Shown: positions 4,727-56,274 of the stretch, piece by piece
How the letters are laid out: each line of letters begins with the position of its first letter
Position numbering within the stretch: the stretch's first letter is position 1
DNA from: an uncultured bacterium
Lineage (GTDB): Bacteria; Actinomycetota; Acidimicrobiia; Spongiisociales; ZC4RG35
Direction of reading: 5' to 3'
Length of the DNA: 64,000 nt
Assembly (NCBI GenBank): GCA_963753285.1
Contig: CAVWBT010000005.1
Span: forward strand, 132,564-196,563
Notes under the pieces: generated by a model
Seen by the model: the letters and a program-made list of their open reading frames with translations, nothing else
Told to the model about the DNA's origin: nothing
Databases searched by the model: none
Program-made: the position numbers and the translations under genes

Positions 4727-5632
4727 ATGAGCGAGACAATCACATTCGACGAGCGAGTCGCGATCGTCACCGGGGCCGGTGGAGGCCTCGGCCGGGAGTA
4801 CGCCCTCGAGCTGGCTCGGAGGGGAGCGCGGGTCGTCGTCAACGATCTCGGTGGTGCCGTTGGTGGCGAGGGCGCCTCCGAACTCGCCGCAGATGCGGTC
4901 GTCGCCGAGATCATCGCAGCCGGGGGAGTGGCCGTCGCCAGCTACGACTCCGTTTCCGAGCCCGAGAGCGGGGCCGCCATCGTGGAGACGGCGGTCGACG
5001 CCTTCGGGACGATCGACATCGTCGTCAACAACGCCGGCATCCTCAGAGACAAGAGCTTCGCCAAGATGTCCGCCGAGGAGGTCGACGCAGTCATCGATGT
5101 CCACCTCCGTGGCGCCTTCAACGTCTCGCGACCGGCGTTCGTGCTCATGAAGGACAAGGGGTACGGCCGGTTCGTCCACACGTCGTCGAACTCAGGGATC
5201 CTGGGCAACTTCGGTCAGGCGAACTACGGCGCTGCCAAGGCCGGCCTCGTCGGGCTCTCCAACGTCCTGGCGATCGAGGGTGCGAAGTACGACATCCGGT
5301 CGAATGTCATCGCTCCGACCGCGATGACACGAATGACCGAGGATCTGCTCGGAGCGTTCGCGGACTACCTCGACCCGGCTCAGGTCATGCCGATGGTGGT
5401 CTATCTGTGCTCTGAGCAGAACCAGTTCACTCACGAGATCTTCTCGGCGGGCGGCGGACGGTATGCGCGCTTCTTCATCGGGATGAACGAAGGCTGGTTC
5501 GCCGGACCGAAGCAGGTTCCGAGCGTCGAGGAGCTGGCAGCGCACCTCGACGAGATCAGGGACATCAGTTCGTACGAGGTTCCAACCAGCTCAACGGACG
5601 AGATCAACCTCCTGGGTCGCCAGTTCCAATGA
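4727..5632 (+). CDS. SDR oxidoreductase (MFE-2-like 3-hydroxyacyl-CoA dehydrogenase)
   Basis: TGAGGGLG, NNAGILRD, NFGQANYGAAK (YxxxK); RBS GAGGA before ATG 4727. Confidence 0.93.
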   Translation: MSETITFDERVAIVTGAGGGLGREYALELARRGARVVVNDLGGAVGGEGASELAADAVVAEIIAAGGVAVASYDSVSEPESGAAIVETAVDAFGTIDIVVNNAGILRDKSFAKMSAEEVDAVIDVHLRGAFNVSRPAFVLMKDKGYGRFVHTSSNSGILGNFGQANYGAAKAGLVGLSNVLAIEGAKYDIRSNVIAPTAMTRMTEDLLGAFADYLDPAQVMPMVVYLCSEQNQFTHEIFSAGGGRYARFFIGMNEGWFAGPKQVPSVEELAAHLDEIRDISSYEVPTSSTDEINLLGRQFQ

Positions 5633-39499: not shown

Positions 39500-41395
39500 A
39501 TGAACAGGTTCGTGATCACCATGCTGGGCATCGTCGCAGCCGTGGGTGGCAGCGCGATCGTCTTCATCGGTGTCAACAAACTGTACGACCTGACGGAGGA
39601 TCACTACTCCCGATTCAACGCGATCGTCGGTGCGCTCGTGTCAGCCGGCGCCTTGGGACTGCTCTGGGGGAATCGCCTCGTCGTGGCGCCGGCGATCGTC
39701 TGGCTGATCGCAATCGCGATCGGGGTCGCCACCGGATACGCCCTCGGTCTCTTCAAAGAGCCGATGCGTCGCCTTGCCAGCGGCGTCGCCGGCGGGTCCG
39801 CCCTTGGACTGCTCATCGGGATGCGCGCCCACGCGTCCATTCTGCCGTCCATCGATCCGCTCGCAGTCATCATCTGGCTGGCAATCGGGACTGGTGTCGG
39901 CTTTGCGGTCTCCATGATCAGCGGCGGACGGATCGACCGGCTCCGAGGCCTGCTCGCAGGGGGTGCCGTCGGCTGGTTGTTCGGTGCTTGGCTTGCATCC
40001 GACTTCGACGGCTCACGGGCTGAGGTCGTCATCGTGGCCACGGTGCTCGGGGGATTGGTCGGTGCCTTCCTCGGGCGGCGCCCCTATCCGAACCGCATCG
40101 AGCGAGGCAACATCGCCGTTTCGAGCCGGAAGTACATCTTCGCAGGACCGGCGCTCGTCTTCGTGGCGGCAGCGCTGCTCATTCCCCTCATCCGCACGAT
40201 CTGGCTGAGTCTGCTGACCGGCAACCCGAGAGACCTGACATGGACCGGCTTGACGAACTACGGCGACATCTTCACCGACCCCGGCATCATCGACTTCAGC
40301 GGGTTCGGGGAGATCTTCAGCAGCAACATGCTCTGGCTGGCCCTGGCACTCCTCGGCGGCGGCTTTATCGCCGGGCGGTTCGCAGGACGACAGCTCGGAA
40401 CCACGTTCGCAGTTGGCGGCCCCAGCCTGACGATGCTGGCGTCCGGTGTGTTGCTCTTCGGCTTTGCGCTGTTCACAACGATCCGCGGAACCATCTCGAA
40501 CAACCTGTGGTGGATCTTCACCGTCATCGTCTTCGCCGTGTCACTCGGCTTGGCTGTGGCGGTTCTGGCCGATCGGTCCAAGGGGGAGAACCTGGCCAAG
40601 TCATTGATCTTCCTCCCAATGGCGATCAGCTTCGTCGGCGCTGCGGTCATCTGGCGTCTCATCTACGTGGCGCGACCACCACAGGATCCTCAGAGCGGCG
40701 TCTTCAACACGCTGTGGGTGAAGCTCGGAGAGTGGACCAACTCGGCCACCGCGAGCACCGTGATCGTGGCCGTCCTCGCCCTTGTTGCTGCCGGCCTGGT
40801 CTATCTGGCGTGGAGGGGATGGCAGGCGGAGGCCAACTCCATCGTGGCAGGCTCGCTCACCATCGTGGCGGGTCTCGGCTACCTCATCTATCGGGTCGTC
40901 GGGCCGGGCATCGGTGGGGTTGCCATCAGCGAGGTCACCGGCGAGCTCATTGCCGACCCGGTGCTCTTCATCCAGGAATCACCCTGGAACAACTTCTGGA
41001 TGATGGTCGTGTTCATCTGGATCTACACAGGGTTCGCCATGGTCATCTTCTCGGCTGCCATCAAGGCGGTGCCTGAGGATCTGCTCGAGGCCGCCCGGAT
41101 CGACGGCGCCACCGAGTCGCAGACGTTCTGGCGCGTGACCGTGCCCCAGATCTTCCCGACGATCGGGGTCGTGGTGACATCTCTGGTGGTCAACTCTCTC
41201 AAGGTGTTCGACATACCCAAAGTCATGACCAACGGCAACTTCGACACGCAGGTGCTCGCCAACGAGATGTGGGAGAAGGCATTCACGCAGCTCAACTTCG
41301 GGCTCGGGTCTGCCGTTGCGGTGGTCCTGTTCATCGCAGTGCTTCCAGTGATGTACCTGAATATTCGCAGAATGCAGAGAGAGAGGTTGGGATGA
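39500..41395 (+). CDS. Carbohydrate ABC permease with a long extra N-terminal membrane domain
   Basis: LIFLPMAISFVGAAVIW, EAA motif (AIKAVPEDLLEAARIDGATESQTFW). Confidence 0.9.
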   Translation: MNRFVITMLGIVAAVGGSAIVFIGVNKLYDLTEDHYSRFNAIVGALVSAGALGLLWGNRLVVAPAIVWLIAIAIGVATGYALGLFKEPMRRLASGVAGGSALGLLIGMRAHASILPSIDPLAVIIWLAIGTGVGFAVSMISGGRIDRLRGLLAGGAVGWLFGAWLASDFDGSRAEVVIVATVLGGLVGAFLGRRPYPNRIERGNIAVSSRKYIFAGPALVFVAAALLIPLIRTIWLSLLTGNPRDLTWTGLTNYGDIFTDPGIIDFSGFGEIFSSNMLWLALALLGGGFIAGRFAGRQLGTTFAVGGPSLTMLASGVLLFGFALFTTIRGTISNNLWWIFTVIVFAVSLGLAVAVLADRSKGENLAKSLIFLPMAISFVGAAVIWRLIYVARPPQDPQSGVFNTLWVKLGEWTNSATASTVIVAVLALVAAGLVYLAWRGWQAEANSIVAGSLTIVAGLGYLIYRVVGPGIGGVAISEVTGELIADPVLFIQESPWNNFWMMVVFIWIYTGFAMVIFSAAIKAVPEDLLEAARIDGATESQTFWRVTVPQIFPTIGVVVTSLVVNSLKVFDIPKVMTNGNFDTQVLANEMWEKAFTQLNFGLGSAVAVVLFIAVLPVMYLNIRRMQRERLG

Positions 41396-42363
41396 CGGCG
41401 ACCGCTGAAGCGACGAAGGTCTCGGGTTCGGGGATCGCGGCCAAGCGGCCACTGGGCAATCGGATCTACGGATTCCTTCGTGCCGTTCCCACCTGGTTCC
41501 TCTGGATTCTCGTCATCGTGTGGAGCATTCCCACGTTCAGCCTGTTCGTGAACTCGTTCCGGACACGTGACGCCCAACGCGGGAGCGGGTTTTGGAACGC
41601 GCTTTCGGATCCGAGCTTCCCCACGCTCGACAACTATCGGGAAGTGCTGTTTCCCGACGTGGGTGCGGGACTGTGGAACGCCCTGCTCAACTCGGCTTCG
41701 ATTGCCATCGTGGCGACGATCATCCCGATTGCCATCGCGGCATTTGCGGCATACGCGTTCGCTTGGATCGACTTCCGCGGCCGAGAGTGGCTGTTCATCG
41801 CGACGGTTGCTCTGCTGGCCGTCCCGTCCCAGGTGGCGCTGATTCCGCTGCTGTCGGCGTACTCCAACGGGGTGCACTGGACGATCCCGTTCATCGAGAG
41901 GACGATCACGCTGTTCCCCGACCTGGACCTGTCAGGGCAGATACCTTCGGTTTGGCTCACCCACACCGGCTTTGCGATGCCGTTTGCGATCTTCCTGCTA
42001 CACAACTACATCGCGGGATTACCGAAGGACTTGTTCGAATCCGCCGCCATCGACGGTGCCGACCACTTCAAGGTGTTTTGGCGACTCGTGCTGCCGCTGT
42101 CCGTGCCGGTGCTGGCTGCCTTCGCCATCTTTCAGTTCCTCTGGACCTGGAACGACTACCTCATCGCGCTGACGATGATCGGTGGCAACCGTGAATCGCT
42201 GCCAGCGACCATCGTGGTGGCGTCACTGGCAGGCGAGTTCGGAGCTCGAGAACACCTGCTCACGGCAGGCGCCTTCGTCATCACGATCGCCCCGCTCGTC
42301 GTCTTCTTCGCATTGCAGCGGTTCTTCGTCCGAGGTATCACGGCAGGTTCGGTCAAGGGCTGA
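41392..42363 (+). CDS. Carbohydrate ABC permease
   Basis: EAA motif (LPKDLFESAAIDGA), FQFLWTWNDYL, LQRFFVRGITAGSVKG. Confidence 0.93.
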   Translation: MTATAEATKVSGSGIAAKRPLGNRIYGFLRAVPTWFLWILVIVWSIPTFSLFVNSFRTRDAQRGSGFWNALSDPSFPTLDNYREVLFPDVGAGLWNALLNSASIAIVATIIPIAIAAFAAYAFAWIDFRGREWLFIATVALLAVPSQVALIPLLSAYSNGVHWTIPFIERTITLFPDLDLSGQIPSVWLTHTGFAMPFAIFLLHNYIAGLPKDLFESAAIDGADHFKVFWRLVLPLSVPVLAAFAIFQFLWTWNDYLIALTMIGGNRESLPATIVVASLAGEFGAREHLLTAGAFVITIAPLVVFFALQRFFVRGITAGSVKG

Positions 42364-42367
42364 TTCG

Positions 42368-42410
42368 TCACACGTCTCACGTCTCACGTCTCACGCAGGC
42401 GTGGGACGTG
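42368..42410. repeat. TCTCACG heptamer tandem repeat plus partial inverted copy
   Basis: tcacacg-tctcacg x3, then GTGGGACGTG able to fold back. Confidence 0.7.
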
Positions 42411-42424
42411 GCGCGTCCACACCT

Positions 42425-42799
42425 GAAGGAGTTCTTGTTGGGAGGAGCGGGTCACGCTTGGTCCATATCTCCAGATGCAGATGCAGCGCCTGACTGACAA
42501 GAACGACGGTCGAGGCCGCAATCCGCGGTGGCAGCACTCGTCGTGGACGGCGGACCACCAGTCGACGTTCTTGGGACAGGGCGAACGCCACGGTTCTGTA
42601 CCCGCCACCGGCAACTTGGGGTGGTCGCTGTCCCAAGAACAGGAGGAGCACTCGCGAGCACGCAACTCCCGCCGTTGTGTGGGCCGAGCAGCAGTCCGCT
42701 CCGCGCCTGGTGCGGGTCATGTGGAGAATGTCGACCGGCAGCGGCTCCGCCCATGAGTGCTCCGCCGTTGCGTGTCAGCCCCCCGAGGGGAACTCCTTC
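42425..42799 (-). ncRNA. Unassigned ~375-nt multi-helix non-coding element between convergent genes
   Basis: Terminal 10-bp helix 42425-34/42790-99; 13-bp helix 42567-79/42628-40; 9-bp helix 42645-53/42755-63. No convincing ORF. Confidence 0.45.
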
Positions 42800-42852
42800 C
42801 GAGAACGGGGCATGCACGTGCAGCGTGAGGCCTTCGGCGTGGAGCGGTCAGC

Positions 42853-43917
42853 TCAGAGCGACGCTCTGAGCCGACCGTGGTCCAGGCGGGGGAGGACCAT
42901 CTCGGCGAAGCGCTCCGCCTCCGCGATGTGGGTGTAGCCGGAGAAGATGAAGGCGGAGACACCGGCCTCCTGATACGCCTGGATCTTCTCGACGACCTGG
43001 TCGGGGTTTCCGACGATCGCTGCGCCCGCACCGGATCGGGCTTTCCCGATTCCGGTCCAGAGGTTCGGTTCGGCGTAGCCGTCCTCCGAAGCGCTCTCCC
43101 GCAGGGCAGCCTGCCGCTGGACACCGACGGAGGCCGAGTCGAGTGACTTGCCTCGGATCGCAGCACCCGTCTCCGCATCCAGCTTCGAGATGAGCCGATC
43201 GGCATCGGCTCTGGCCTCCTGCTCGGTCTCGCGAACGATCACGTGTGAGCGCAGCCCGATCGCCAGGCTCCGGCCATGGTCGGCGGCTCGGTCCTGCATC
43301 TCGGTGGCGGTGGCGCCGACCGAGGCCACCGTGTCGGGCCAGGTGAGGAACACATCTGCCTCACGAGCGGCTACGTCCTTCGCCGCCTCCGAGAATCCTC
43401 CAAAATACATCGGCGGGCACATGCCCGACACCGTCGAGATGCGGGGCGGCTCCAGGTCGAGGTCGAGGAAGTCGCCGTGGATCTCGAGCTTCTCGTTGCT
43501 CAGCAGGGTGCGGAGCGCCTGCATCCATTCGATCGTCCGCTGGTATCTGGGTGCCGACTCCAGGCTCTCGCCAGGGATGTCGGACGAGATGATATTGATG
43601 GTCAGCCGGCCATCGAGCATCTGGTCGATGGTGGCCAGCTGACGGGCGAGCTGGGGCACCCACATCTCGCCCATACGAACGGCGACGAGCAGCTGGATCT
43701 GTTCGACCGTCGGCGCGATGGCGCTGGCGAACGAGACAGTGTCGATTCCGAGGGTGTATCCGCTGGGAAGCAGGATGTTGTCGAACCCGAGCCGGTCTGC
43801 CGTCTGGACGATGTCGCGGCAGTGTGGCCAGGAGCTCTTGAGTGCAGGATCGGGAACGCCGAGGAACTCGTAGTCGTCGTCGCACAGCGCGCCGAACCAG
43901 GAGACTTCGATGGTCAT
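42853..43917 (-). CDS. LLM-class flavin-dependent monooxygenase, sulfoquinovose monooxygenase (SmoC/SquD)-like
   Basis: EVSWFGALCDDDYEFLGVPD, GRLTINIISSDIPG, MYFGGFS, LWTGIGKARSGAGAAIVG, FIFSGY. These match my recollection of SmoC rather than generic SsuD. Confidence 0.8.
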   Translation of the reverse strand: MTIEVSWFGALCDDDYEFLGVPDPALKSSWPHCRDIVQTADRLGFDNILLPSGYTLGIDTVSFASAIAPTVEQIQLLVAVRMGEMWVPQLARQLATIDQMLDGRLTINIISSDIPGESLESAPRYQRTIEWMQALRTLLSNEKLEIHGDFLDLDLEPPRISTVSGMCPPMYFGGFSEAAKDVAAREADVFLTWPDTVASVGATATEMQDRAADHGRSLAIGLRSHVIVRETEQEARADADRLISKLDAETGAAIRGKSLDSASVGVQRQAALRESASEDGYAEPNLWTGIGKARSGAGAAIVGNPDQVVEKIQAYQEAGVSAFIFSGYTHIAEAERFAEMVLPRLDHGRLRASL

Positions 43918-44813
43918 GGGAGTGCTTCTCCTTCCGAAGCTTCGATCAGGGTGTACACGTCTTCTCTCGTGAGCGACACGTTCAACGCGGCGGTGGCCGC
44001 TTCCAGCCGTTCGGGCTTCTGGGACCCGACGATCGCCACCGGCTCCGACGGGTGTGCCAGGACGAATGCGAGAGCGATCGCAGTGCGGTCGACGTTCTCT
44101 CTCGATGCCAGCGCGTCGATCTCGAGCATCAGCTCCGTACGGATGTTGTGACCGGTGGCGAGTGCGCCGCCCGCCAGGGCGCTCCACGCGAGCGGGCGGA
44201 GGCCGAGCCGCATCGCCTGGTCGAGTGTGCCATCTCGGAGCGGATCGAGGTGGCTCACCGAGAACTGCGGCTGGGTGGAGACGACCGAATCGCCGAGATG
44301 AGCGAAGAGCGCCTCGGTTTGGGCGGGCGTGAAGTTCGACACGCCGACGGCGCCGATCTTCCCGGATTCGATGAATCCGGTGAGCGTGTCGGCGAGGTTC
44401 TCGGGATGGGTGAACATGTCCGGCCGGTGGATCTGATACAGGTCGATCCGATCGACACCGAGGCGTGTCAGTGATGCGTCGAGCGCCCCGGTGAGGTAGC
44501 GGCGGGAGGAGTCGTAGGGAACACCTGGCATGATCCCGCCCTTCGAGGCGAGCACCATGCGGTCGCGGAGCGCCGGCGAACTCGCCAGAACCGAACCGAG
44601 CAGGCGTTCGGCGTCACCGAACCCGTTGCCGCCCCAGTCGAGTCCGTAGATGTCGGCCGTGTCGATCAGGTTCATCCCGAGATCGAGTGCCGTTGCGACG
44701 AGGCCCGTGGCGGTGGGGACGTCGTGACCGACGAATCGCCAGTGTCCGAACGCGAGCGGACCAACCTCGGGGAGGGGCCCGAGCGACCGCGGTGATGAGG
44801 TGTTCAGGTTCAT
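43914..44813 (-). CDS. Aldo/keto reductase (YdhF/SmoB-like, putative 6-oxo-glucose reductase)
   Basis: IDTADIYG, LASKGG, LYQIHRPD, GVSNF, LAWSALAGG; stop overlaps the smoC-like start. Confidence 0.85.
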   Translation of the reverse strand: MNLNTSSPRSLGPLPEVGPLAFGHWRFVGHDVPTATGLVATALDLGMNLIDTADIYGLDWGGNGFGDAERLLGSVLASSPALRDRMVLASKGGIMPGVPYDSSRRYLTGALDASLTRLGVDRIDLYQIHRPDMFTHPENLADTLTGFIESGKIGAVGVSNFTPAQTEALFAHLGDSVVSTQPQFSVSHLDPLRDGTLDQAMRLGLRPLAWSALAGGALATGHNIRTELMLEIDALASRENVDRTAIALAFVLAHPSEPVAIVGSQKPERLEAATAALNVSLTREDVYTLIEASEGEALP

Positions 44814-48994: not shown

Positions 48995-50860
48995 TCAGTT
49001 GATGTTCAGGCTGACGCTCGCTCGGCCGCAGACTCCATCGACCGTACAGACCTCGTAGACCAACGAGTCAGTTCCGGCGGATCCGGGGGCGGCGTCGTAG
49101 CGGATCTTGCCACTTCCACCGACGAGTGAGGCACTTCCGGCACCCGGTGGCGTCGTGATCCTCAGAGTGGTGAGGTCGAGTGGGCCTGAGTCATTGGCCA
49201 ACACGCGGATGATCACGCTTCCATTCGGCCGGACAGTCGCGTTGTCCGGTTGGACCGACAGCGGGCCTGCCGCTGTCGTCGTCGTGGTTGTGGGTGAGAC
49301 GGTTGTTGTCGTGGTGGGTGGGACGGTTGTTGTCGTGGTGGGTGGGACGGTTGTTGTCGTGGTGGGTGGGACGGTTGTCGTCGTGGTGGGTGGCACCGTC
49401 GTGGTCGTGGTCGGTGAGAGCGTGGTCGGTGTGGTCGAGGGCGCGGTGGTGGTCGGGGTTGATGTGGTCGGCGTCGTTGGGGAGGTCGTAGTGGCGGTGG
49501 TGGGTGTCGTCGCTGTGGTGGGAGGGGAGGTCGCTGCGGTCGTCGGCGGGGGCGAATCGTCCGGGGGCGGTGCGGCTGGCGTCTCGGCCGCTGCGGCCAG
49601 GTACGTCGTTGTGGTCGTTTCGTCGGCTGGGCCCGTCGCCGGCGGAAGCTCTGTCGGGCTCTCGGCCTCCGGCTCGCCTGCTGCGATGATTGCGTCGACC
49701 ACGTCGCCGCTCAGCCCGGCACCGGCGATCACCACTTCCACGACTTCACGCGTCGGAAGGTCGGCGGGAGAGGGGATCACACCCGTGATGAGCGACGTGG
49801 TCATGATCGCTGAGCTGGCAACCAACGTGACCACGTCTCTTCCGAGCGCGGGAAGCCCTCGGGACCAGGGGAACTGCCCGATGGCTGCCAACGGGCCCGT
49901 TGCCCATCTGAGTCTCCCGATGGCCACACGCATCAGTGCCCTGGCGACCTTCGGATCGAACTGTGAACCCGACATCGCCACGATTTCGCGTCTCGCCTGG
50001 TTCGCAGACATCGCACGTTGGTAGGACCGCCCGCTCGTCATGACGTCGTAGGCGTCGGCGACCGCGACGATTCGCGCCCCGTAGGCGATGTCTTCGCCCG
50101 AGAGCCCGAATGGGTAGCCGCTGCCGTCATATCGCTCGTGATGATGCGCGATCGTCTCCGCCCACGGTCCCAACCATACGGCGATTGGGGCGATCATCCT
50201 CAGACCGTGGACCGGGTGCTGGCGCACCTCGTGCCACTCGTCTTCGTCGAGGGCCCCGTCTTTGTTGAGAATCTCGCCAGAAATCTCGAGCTTGCCGATG
50301 TCATGGAGCAGTGCCGCCCATCTGAGGCGATCGCGATCGCCTTGCCCGAGCCTGAGTTGTTCGGCGATCATGTCGACGTACGCCCTGACCCGTTCGGAGT
50401 GTCCGCGGGTCTTGCGATCATGCCTCCCCAGCGCCGCAGAGAGGGAGAGGATCAACTCTGCGGCCTCGGCGGTCGCTCTGTCCCTACCGGCTTCGACGGC
50501 CGCCACGCGGCGCTTCAGCTCTGACATCGATCCAGAGCGTCGGGCCACCCTGAGGCGGGACGGTGCCTCGTCAGGAAAGAGCATGCTCATCTTCAACAGC
50601 GTGGAGAGCGGCAGGAAGCGGCGGGCGAACCGGTCGACCAGCGTTGCTGCGGCGGTTGCGGTGGCGATCGTGAAGACCCACCACGTCACGAGCTGCGACA
50701 CACGTTCTGGCTCTGGGAGCCGGTGCGAGACCCACGCTCCGGCGAAGAACCCTGCCATGAGCGGGACGAGGAAGATCAGGGCGCGCACGACGAACGCCGC
50801 AAATCGACGTTCCTGCCAGCGCTGGGAGGCGCTGGTCCGCGTGTCGTCGTCCTCTTTCAT
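48995..50860 (-). CDS. Membrane HD-GYP phosphodiesterase with Thr/Pro stalk and C-terminal Ig-like (Big_9-type) domain
   Basis: Two N-terminal TMs; HSERV, LLHDIGK, HHERYDGSGYP, RIVAVADAYD, GSQFDP; hydrophobic segment; TTTTVPP repeats; IRVLAND...YEVC. Confidence 0.85.
   Translation of the reverse strand: MKEDDDTRTSASQRWQERRFAAFVVRALIFLVPLMAGFFAGAWVSHRLPEPERVSQLVTWWVFTIATATAAATLVDRFARRFLPLSTLLKMSMLFPDEAPSRLRVARRSGSMSELKRRVAAVEAGRDRATAEAAELILSLSAALGRHDRKTRGHSERVRAYVDMIAEQLRLGQGDRDRLRWAALLHDIGKLEISGEILNKDGALDEDEWHEVRQHPVHGLRMIAPIAVWLGPWAETIAHHHERYDGSGYPFGLSGEDIAYGARIVAVADAYDVMTSGRSYQRAMSANQARREIVAMSGSQFDPKVARALMRVAIGRLRWATGPLAAIGQFPWSRGLPALGRDVVTLVASSAIMTTSLITGVIPSPADLPTREVVEVVIAGAGLSGDVVDAIIAAGEPEAESPTELPPATGPADETTTTTYLAAAAETPAAPPPDDSPPPTTAATSPPTTATTPTTATTTSPTTPTTSTPTTTAPSTTPTTLSPTTTTTVPPTTTTTVPPTTTTTVPPTTTTTVPPTTTTTVSPTTTTTTAAGPLSVQPDNATVRPNGSVIIRVLANDSGPLDLTTLRITTPPGAGSASLVGGSGKIRYDAAPGSAGTDSLVYEVCTVDGVCGRASVSLNIN
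49290..49410 (-). repeat. 24-bp coding tandem repeat (TTTTVPPT) in the HD-GYP stalk
   Basis: About 5 copies of gtgggtgggacggttgttgtcgtg. Confidence 0.85.
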
Positions 50861-56139: not shown

Positions 56140-56143
56140 GCCG

Positions 56144-56192
56144 TTCCAGGTTCCAGGTTCCAGGTTCCAGGTTCCACGTTCCACGCTCCACG
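56144..56192. repeat. Heptamer tandem array (TTCCAGG x4, TTCCACG x2, CTCCACG)
   Basis: Seven consecutive 7-bp units directly after the selenoprotein gene. Confidence 0.9.
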
Positions 56193-56274
56193 TCTGCCTA
56201 GCACGGTGGTCGTGTGGTGTAGACGGCCCGAAGGGGCTTGACACCCTGCGCTTCGCCATGCCAGAGTAGCTAGA

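Follow-up and report, generated by a model that had tools for sequence, protein, structure and literature searches.

A lineage-restricted, modular intergenic repeat with an RNA-type fold in the Acidimicrobiales

The REP/BIME repeats of enterobacteria and the ERIC/IRU repeats are mosaic repeats at the 3' ends of genes, and their hairpins act in mRNA. There, REP-type repeats play roles in stabilisation against 3' exonucleases, in attenuation and in RNase cleavage, and REPs are recognised as strand-specific hairpins by RAYT transposases. Pneumococcal BOX, RUP and SPRITE are modular repeats that fold into RNA stem-loops; they are over-represented between convergent genes and are transcribed together with their neighbours (PMC3049150). 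BOX has the order boxA-boxB(n)-boxC with a varying number of internal modules, is enriched downstream of genes and spreads by an unknown or trans-acting mechanism (PMC3049150).

We compared these systems with an element in the spacer between the stop codon of an ABC-transporter permease gene (plus strand, 42363) and that of a convergent luciferase-like monooxygenase gene (minus strand, 42853) in the window, that is, the whole 64,000-nt stretch of DNA that was analysed. The element is almost certainly a copy of a new, lineage-restricted, modular interspersed intergenic repeat with an RNA-type fold, hereafter the Acidimicrobiales repeat. The initial annotation had described a single structured unit of 375 nt at 42425-42799; the conserved evolutionary unit is instead a leader (42366-42423) followed by a core of about 247 nt (42424-42670) on the plus strand. 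From 5' to 3', it runs through a C-rich leader, domain A with P1 and P2, a single-stranded linker that is conserved, domain B with P4, and a C-rich tail (Table 1).

Like BOX, RUP and SPRITE in Streptococcus pneumoniae, the Acidimicrobiales repeat is small, interspersed, intergenic and modular, with repeated units of leader and domain A and a doubled tail. Unlike BOX, to which it has no sequence relation, it occurs in another phylum and is longer (about 300 nt with the leader); it also carries a (CACGNNN)n leader, conserved single-stranded blocks and a free loop of constrained length, and its orthologous copies show purifying selection. With REP/BIME and ERIC/IRU it shares the mosaic build and the intergenic position at gene 3' ends; however, REPs are palindromes of 20-40 nt with a GTAG head, whereas this repeat has two domains and about 250 nt, and no RAYT gene was seen. 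MITEs such as Correia in Neisseria and Nezha in cyanobacteria resemble it in having no ORF, a length below 600 bp, multiple copies and inverted repeats (here GAGTTCTTGTTGGGAGG against the reverse complement of CTGTCCCAAGAACAG), and also in the effects expected on co-transcribed RNA. Unlike in MITEs, the inverted repeats are the internal feet of P1 and P4, beyond which conserved sequence continues for about 50 nt on the 5' side and about 30 nt on the 3' side, and neither a target-site duplication nor a cognate IS was found for the Acidimicrobiales repeat. Finally, IS110 bridge RNA and 6S/Ms1 are likewise structured non-coding RNAs of 200-300 nt, but the repeat has no evident recombinase and no conserved guide loops, and it differs from 6S/Ms1 in not being single-copy, in having no conserved rod and in giving no Rfam match. 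The features held in common with BOX/BIME/ERIC, an operational class and not a homology family, are intergenic dispersal at gene 3' ends and in convergent spacers, variable modules and a hairpin structure, which covariation supports in P1 and P4.

Table 1 Features of the repeat locus and its flanking genes (positions in the window)
Feature	Position	Strand	Evidence or remark
Upstream gene, ABC-transporter permease (BPD_transp_1)	41269-42363	+	Pfam
Leader	42366-42423	+	TRF; side-by-side listing of the leaders of 26 copies
Leader 7-nt array, CGTCTCA x4.3	42366-42395	+	TRF; begins 3 nt past the permease stop codon
Leader hairpin, CACGTCTCACGC/GCGTGGGACGTG	42385-42410	+	Within the leader
Conserved core: P1 domain, P2, invariant linker GGCAGCACUCGUCG, P4 domain, C-rich tail	42424-42670	+	nhmmer, covariance model R1, alignments A2 and A6
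P1 5' strand, G-[GA]-G-UUCUUGUUGG-[GA]-GG	42428-42445	+	Pairs with 42490-42507
P1 loop, 41-46 nt in nearly all copies	42446-42489	+	Length constrained, sequence not
P1 3' strand, CY-GA-CUGACAAGAAC-GA-C	42490-42507	+	Pairs with P1 5' strand
P2, short hairpin GUCG/YGGC with variable G+C-rich interior	42509-42532	+	4 pairs
P4 domain: 13-bp helix 42567-79/42628-40 around conserved GUGCGAAC..CACGGUUCUG and CCACC/GGUGG hairpin	42567-42640	+	Covariation
Tail module, consensus GCACACC-AGCGAGCACGCAACCCGCGCC	42641-42670	+	Diverged in the window; often doubled in other copies
Degenerate, internally deleted partial copy (leader and domain A as far as CGACCAUUC)	42726-42831	-	Local alignment to family consensus
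Palindrome, 16 bp, 94% complementary	42845-42877		Spans the monooxygenase stop codon
Convergent gene, luciferase-like monooxygenase	42853-44187	-	ORF as listed; true start probably further downstream inside the ORF

In P1, an 11-bp helix is bordered at both ends by a tandem G.A/A.G internal loop and then by G-C pairs. The Shine-Dalgarno-like GAAGGAG and the GGGAGG sit in these tandem loops, so both are structural. P1 and P4 stand on the same foot (GTTCTTG...CAAGAAC), the linker between the two domains is nearly invariant (GGCGGCAGCACUCGUCG...CCGCAACNCGACCA), and the motif CGCAACNCG recurs in the leader, at the junction of domains A and B and in the tail. The P1 loop shows no excess folding against shuffles (z about +0.5), and a conserved hairpin or guide at the P1 tip was rejected on this ground and on that of neutral drift. 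The modular build is seen in the other copies: partial units of leader and domain A precede the full copies at L008, L013 and L025, and the contig L042 ends with two such units in tandem. Copies are also interleaved with other repeat modules (motif2 and a 52-nt repeat).

Several further sequences accompany the repeat in the carrier spacers. A second module, GAGATGCGCTGCGGGCGCCGCAAGCGGGCGCCCCTAC, is a G+C-rich hairpin found 45-70 nt past the repeat tail at four loci with differing neighbours (L002 at about 2796-2835, L022, L038 and L036); it has no Rfam match and is absent from the window. Another mosaic module, a unit of about 52 nt (GGCAGGGACCTTTCCCCACTGCGTGGGGAAC), occurs three times in tandem at L003 (about 5480-5600) and once at L038, in the orthologous spacer before tsaD, and is likewise absent from the window. 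Between the repeat and ftsE, the orthologous loci L007 and L011 share a conserved stretch of about 60 nt (..CAGTGGTACCATCACCAYTCACTTTTCGCGTTCTGTGGTG..), a possible leader or operator.

In the other copies, the leader takes the form of (CACGNNN)n arrays, typically (CACGCNN)4-5, which stand ahead of nearly all of them. Arrays with a 7-nt period are a feature of the lineage: TRF finds 24 in about 290 kb of it vs 1 in about 520 kb of other Acidimicrobiia and other bacteria. They are intergenic, often lie just past stop codons and occur also without the structured repeat, with units such as GTTCCAG x7 and GCTGTCG x4 together with GACGTGG x4, among others. In addition to the leader array of Table 1, such sites lie at 56142-56193 of the window and at L004 5556-5642, L022 8833-8862 and L044 4065-4102 and 4279-4302. 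As a motif, the heptad pattern CACGCNNCACGC is not enriched after stop codons in the window. That the arrays form a platform for Rho or another RNA-binding protein is a guess. A strong tandem repeat of another kind, with periods of 24/48/72 nt, a TRF score of up to 205 and GTGGGTGGGACGGTTGTTGTCGTG present some five to six times, occupies 49281-49459 of the window and is probably a repetitive coding stretch.

The initial annotation had taken the region to be non-coding and outside the known RNA families, and both points hold. Pfam gave nothing credible on the local ORFs and no frame is kept across copies. ARAGORN finds neither tRNA nor tmRNA, and Rfam 15 gave no match at the gathering score in the 64-kb window and nothing relevant at that score in 20 further loci; at E<=10, nothing relevant appeared over 42300-42900. 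Protein coding was rejected, since no open frame is conserved, the gap runs in the core alignment are mostly of 1 or 2 nt (1 nt, n=109; 2 nt, n=56; 3 nt, n=29) and the substitutions among metagenome variants of the region have no 3-periodicity.

Its appearance had also suggested a repeat or mobile element, and a multi-copy family was found. The covariance model R1 (254 positions) detects 28 full copies that score 131-251 bits and stand at unrelated loci, together with truncated copies; the single full copy in the window scores 228 bits (E 1e-65) with R1 and 204.7 bits with nhmmer. Pattern scans of GTDB species genomes place 12 loci in four MAGs of one Acidimicrobiales lineage (ERR2431957_binner23_Refined_4, ERR2431959_concoct_71, Ww195 and Ww501), at 2-4 loci per incomplete MAG, and a scan of sediment metagenomes added about 20 more. 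On many sediment contigs, positions 42492-42642 are found with differing flanks, and 42660-42835 are uncovered. An R1 search of 78 loci, about 0.5 Mb of sequence from further Acidimicrobiia and from bacteria of other groups, returned nothing except the orthologous Ww501 copy, the plasmid, phage and viral collections contained no match to the repeat, and a literature search for a previously described repeat or RNA motif of Acidimicrobiia found nothing relevant. The closest relatives of the neighbouring monooxygenase are in the same carrier MAGs (92-97% amino-acid identity; next best <=78%), which places the organism in the Acidimicrobiia/Acidimicrobiales.

Thermodynamic folding was compared with dinucleotide shuffles. 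The 375-nt stretch folds moderately better than its shuffles on either strand (z -2.6 on the minus strand and -3.2 on the plus strand), as does the conserved core (z -2.0 on the plus strand and -2.7 on the minus strand); being moderate on both strands, the z values alone decide neither the reality of the structure nor its strand. Comparison among copies is more informative. In 27 copies, 97.3% of 742 helix cells are standard pairs, and both partners have changed at seven pairs and in 22 cells. Not one of five measures was equalled in 500 column shuffles, and moving the 3' partners 1-3 columns out of register lowers the pairing to 34-62%. For example, 20 copies have G:C at P1 column 18/86, five have U:A and one has C:G, and P4 shows the compensatory series GGGACAG/CUGUCCC to GUGACAG/CUGUCAC to GUGGCAG/CUGCCAC, in which four pairs changed on both sides. 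P1 and P4 are thus helices supported by compensatory changes. In P2, 99% of cells in the four pairs are paired, but the changes are one-sided only, so its support is weak. For the candidate linker helices or pseudoknot (GUCG/CGAC, CGACC/GGUCG and GGCGG/UCGUC), changes are uncompensated in the copies compared. Of the helices proposed in the initial annotation, the perfect 13-bp helix and the nested CCACC/GGTGG hairpin are present and recur in other copies; the only other helix common to the copies is P1, which it had missed.

The same alignment indicates the strand. U-G or G-U occurs at four pairs in 17-25 copies (in P1, in 17-20 copies), and about 95 of the 742 cells would be A-C mismatches on the other strand; the selected strand is therefore the plus strand of the window, contrary to the minus-strand transcription favoured earlier.

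To assess constraint, identities between orthologous loci were set against the codon third positions in the last 600 nt of the adjacent permease gene. Between the window and the metagenome locus L016, identity is 0.72 at third positions, 0.90-0.96 in the core and 0.71 in the P1 loop, and the corresponding values against L043, the Ww501 orthologue, are 0.66, 0.78-0.84 and 0.37. Since the core lies above the third positions, purifying selection has acted after insertion or, less likely, gene conversion has homogenised the copies; some of the apparent constraint could reflect such conversion. The identity of the P1 loop between orthologues is at or below that of third positions, and this loop is constrained in length only.

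All 28 copies are intergenic, in convergent or tandem spacers, and none is in a purely divergent one, with L032 as a possible exception. At most loci, the 5' end of the core lies 32-101 nt past the stop codon of a co-oriented gene. Where the flanking genes are in tandem, the repeat is co-oriented at 6-7 of 8-9 independent loci, a bias that is not significant (about p 0.09), and at two independent loci (L022/L006 and L005/L029) the repeat is antisense to both neighbours. The downstream genes are unrelated (ftsE, glnA, pfkA, genes for a peroxiredoxin and a molybdopterin oxidoreductase, tsaD and others). The 52 neighbouring ORFs of about 25 copies match 64 Pfam families, none with more than two members, and those with two are pairs from orthologous loci. 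The 25 of the 64 families that were listed are all housekeeping, with no recombinase or transposase among them. In Ww195, which has copies elsewhere, the core is missing at the orthologous site and about 170 nt of unrelated sequence stands there, with heptad arrays kept after both stop codons; the site is thus not a clean empty site, and neither a target-site duplication nor an empty site could be defined there.

Taken together, the best reading, to which we assign a probability of roughly 55%, is a BOX/BIME-like interspersed repeat that would act as a co-transcribed 3'-UTR module. The repeat would be read through from the upstream gene. Selection of its fold on the strand that matches this gene's mRNA suggests that it acts as RNA. 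The C-rich arrays may offer an unstructured entry or binding platform of the Rho-like kind, and the hairpins may block 3' exonucleases or serve as a processing site, so that the 3' end of the transcript would be shaped or protected. This particular function, with read-through, platform arrays and protecting or processing hairpins, parallels earlier proposals for BOX, SPRITE, REP and ERIC elements (PMC3049150) and is, taken by itself, less likely than not. We infer read-through transcription, the 3'-end function and the manner of spread alike. No canonical U-tract terminator and no sigma-70-like promoter was found. Of the RNA runs searched, none contained the window copy; the only RNA-level trace found is a 200-nt contig of a sediment metatranscriptome (run X25; depth 2.6, 97% identity) matching L025 1141-1323. 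It covers the L025 leader, domain A and half of P4 at a depth similar to that of the flanking genes and is compatible with co-transcription, although it is strandless and DNA carry-over is possible.

The main rival is a selfish, non-autonomous mobile element of the MITE/PATE type with no host function, whose two hairpins would be read as single-stranded DNA by a transposase acting in trans, e.g. an HUH/Y1 enzyme as for IS200/IS605 or REP-RAYT. We regard this as possible but not probable. The repeat occurs in multiple copies, and its distribution over orthologous sites is patchy; the P1 and P4 hairpins resemble each other, lie on one strand and share a foot; the structure is strand-specific with G.T-tolerant pairs; CGCAACNCG recurs in the three places given above; and the copies sit in gene 3' spacers, where insertions are tolerated (PMC3049150). 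However, orthologous copies are conserved above codon third positions while their own loop drifts, and the conserved sequence runs past the inverted repeats, which are therefore not terminal. The lack of a definable target-site duplication or clean empty site, of a transposase among the listed Pfam families beside about 25 copies, and of matches in the plasmid, phage and viral collections also speaks against such an element. The selfish element and the 3'-UTR reading are compatible with each other and not exclusive.

The strongly conserved unpaired blocks (GGCAGCACUC and AAGAACGACGG) suggest a specific partner and are not explained by a simple stabiliser model. The core combines a symmetric 11-bp helix with tandem G.A pairs, a free-sequence loop of fixed length, invariant single-stranded blocks and a second hairpin domain. 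That it is a new functional class of structured RNA working with a specific partner, as a mobility substrate or a 3'-end signal, is unlikely. In the first case, the core would serve a new mobility system as its substrate, in the form of RNA or of single-stranded DNA; in the second, Rho or another RNA-binding protein of these Acidimicrobiales would read it, along with the lineage-specific (CACGNNN)n arrays, as a dedicated signal for 3'-end formation.

A less probable explanation is that the copies are independently expressed or processed small RNAs acting in trans, in which a scaffold carrying GAAGGAG/GGGAGGAG and the single-stranded blocks binds a protein or the ribosome. The invariant unpaired blocks, the symmetric helix flanked by tandem G.A pairs and the purifying selection on the core fit this proposal, and the two antisense loci would need a promoter of their own. 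No promoter-like site was found, however; the 5' ends lie at a fixed short distance past stop codons, and the only candidate 'seed', the P1 loop, is unconstrained.

We consider a cis-regulatory leader or attenuator very improbable. Here the four GTTCTTG/CAAGAAC segments (S1-S4) would alternate between the pairings 1:2 with 3:4 and 2:3, under the control of a translated short ORF with its start past GAAGGAG and its end at GAC-UGA. The segments can indeed pair alternatively, a TTG stands in frame past the Shine-Dalgarno-like motif, and several copies have a UGA at the foot of P1. Yet this UGA is in frame in only 8 of the 14 copies that have it and is lacking in the others, the downstream genes are unrelated or convergent with a distance of 185-400 nt to the next start, and covariation backs 1:2 and 3:4 only. 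With no fixed class of downstream gene, a short ORF that is not kept and no Rfam T-box match, an attenuator or T-box is largely refuted by context.

The initial annotation had also proposed a transposase-less IS110/IS1111 end carrying a bridge-like RNA. The guide loops of IS110 bridge RNA must match donor and target. An IS110/IS1111 end would agree with an element that is non-coding and structured, contains internal loops and is repeated in the genome, but the flanks in the window are the permease and monooxygenase genes, no DEDD recombinase gene stands beside about 25 copies (among the Pfam families listed), the only large loop is hypervariable and neutral, unlike guide loops, and tandem partial units and heptad leaders are foreign to IS110. 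The proposal is accordingly implausible.

A major structural difference between the window and the other loci lies in the 3' third of the 375-nt stretch. The last 130-180 nt of that stretch are missing from the orthologues and from every other copy, and positions 42672-42852 are absent from the orthologous spacers of L016 and L043, which end about 50 nt past the tail; this segment is thus specific to the window. It contains part of a second copy in inverted orientation (Table 1). Read on the minus strand, the segment gives a collinear alignment to the family's leader and domain A (GCCTCACGC..GAAGGAGTTC..CTGA..CACGCAAC..GGCGG-AGCACTC..CGGTCGA-CATTC). The score of this alignment is 46.6; 500 dinucleotide shuffles gave 21.0 +/- 3.6 with a maximum of 42.4, and the other strand gave 15.2. 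nhmmer alone recovers only its first 18 nt (E 0.11), which indicates a decayed, internally deleted copy. The partial copy is placed after the monooxygenase stop codon, as full copies are placed after their upstream genes. The spacer is therefore made up of one intact plus-strand copy (42366-42670) and one decayed, inverted minus-strand copy (about 42726-42831). The palindrome across the monooxygenase stop codon is terminator-like, lacks a U tract and lies outside the repeat.

This arrangement explains the long-range pairings on which the 375-nt unit had been based. The closing arms are present (42425-42445/42779-42799, 21 nt, 76% complementary), but they are restricted to the window, and their core helix GAAGGAGTTC/GAACTCCTTC arises because the 5' ends of the two facing copies pair. 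Similarly, the helix given as 9 bp exists as 42642-53/42755-66 (12 nt, 92% complementary), in which the diverged tail of the plus copy (GGAGGAGCACTC) pairs with the GGCGGAGCACTC block of the minus copy, a 9-12-bp helix that depends on the window-specific segment. The structure is real in this sense, whereas neither the limits 42425-42799 nor the single rod stands up to comparison. A single 6S/Ms1-like rod RNA of about 375 nt transcribed from the minus strand has hardly any likelihood left, because, against its end-to-end complementarity and minus-strand z of -2.6, the closing helix needs 42779-42799, which are absent elsewhere, the G-U pairs point to the plus strand, the repeat has multiple copies and a modular build with tandem partial units and a second partial copy in the same spacer, and no Rfam family, 6S included, matches. 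For annotation, the lesson is that long-range 'rod' complementarity in a convergent spacer may be just two facing copies of a repeat.

In summary, the element is a new small interspersed intergenic repeat with RNA structure, unusual in its heptad leader, its helix flanked by G.A pairs, its free loop of fixed length and its demonstrable constraint. It contributes a well-supported family of structured repeats from a poorly studied lineage of uncultured actinobacteria, documented by 28 copies, by compensatory changes and by a constraint that can be measured. If the proposed 3'-end role is true, the repeat and its accompanying heptad arrays would provide a handle on transcript termination or stabilisation in high-G+C bacteria without canonical U-tract terminators.
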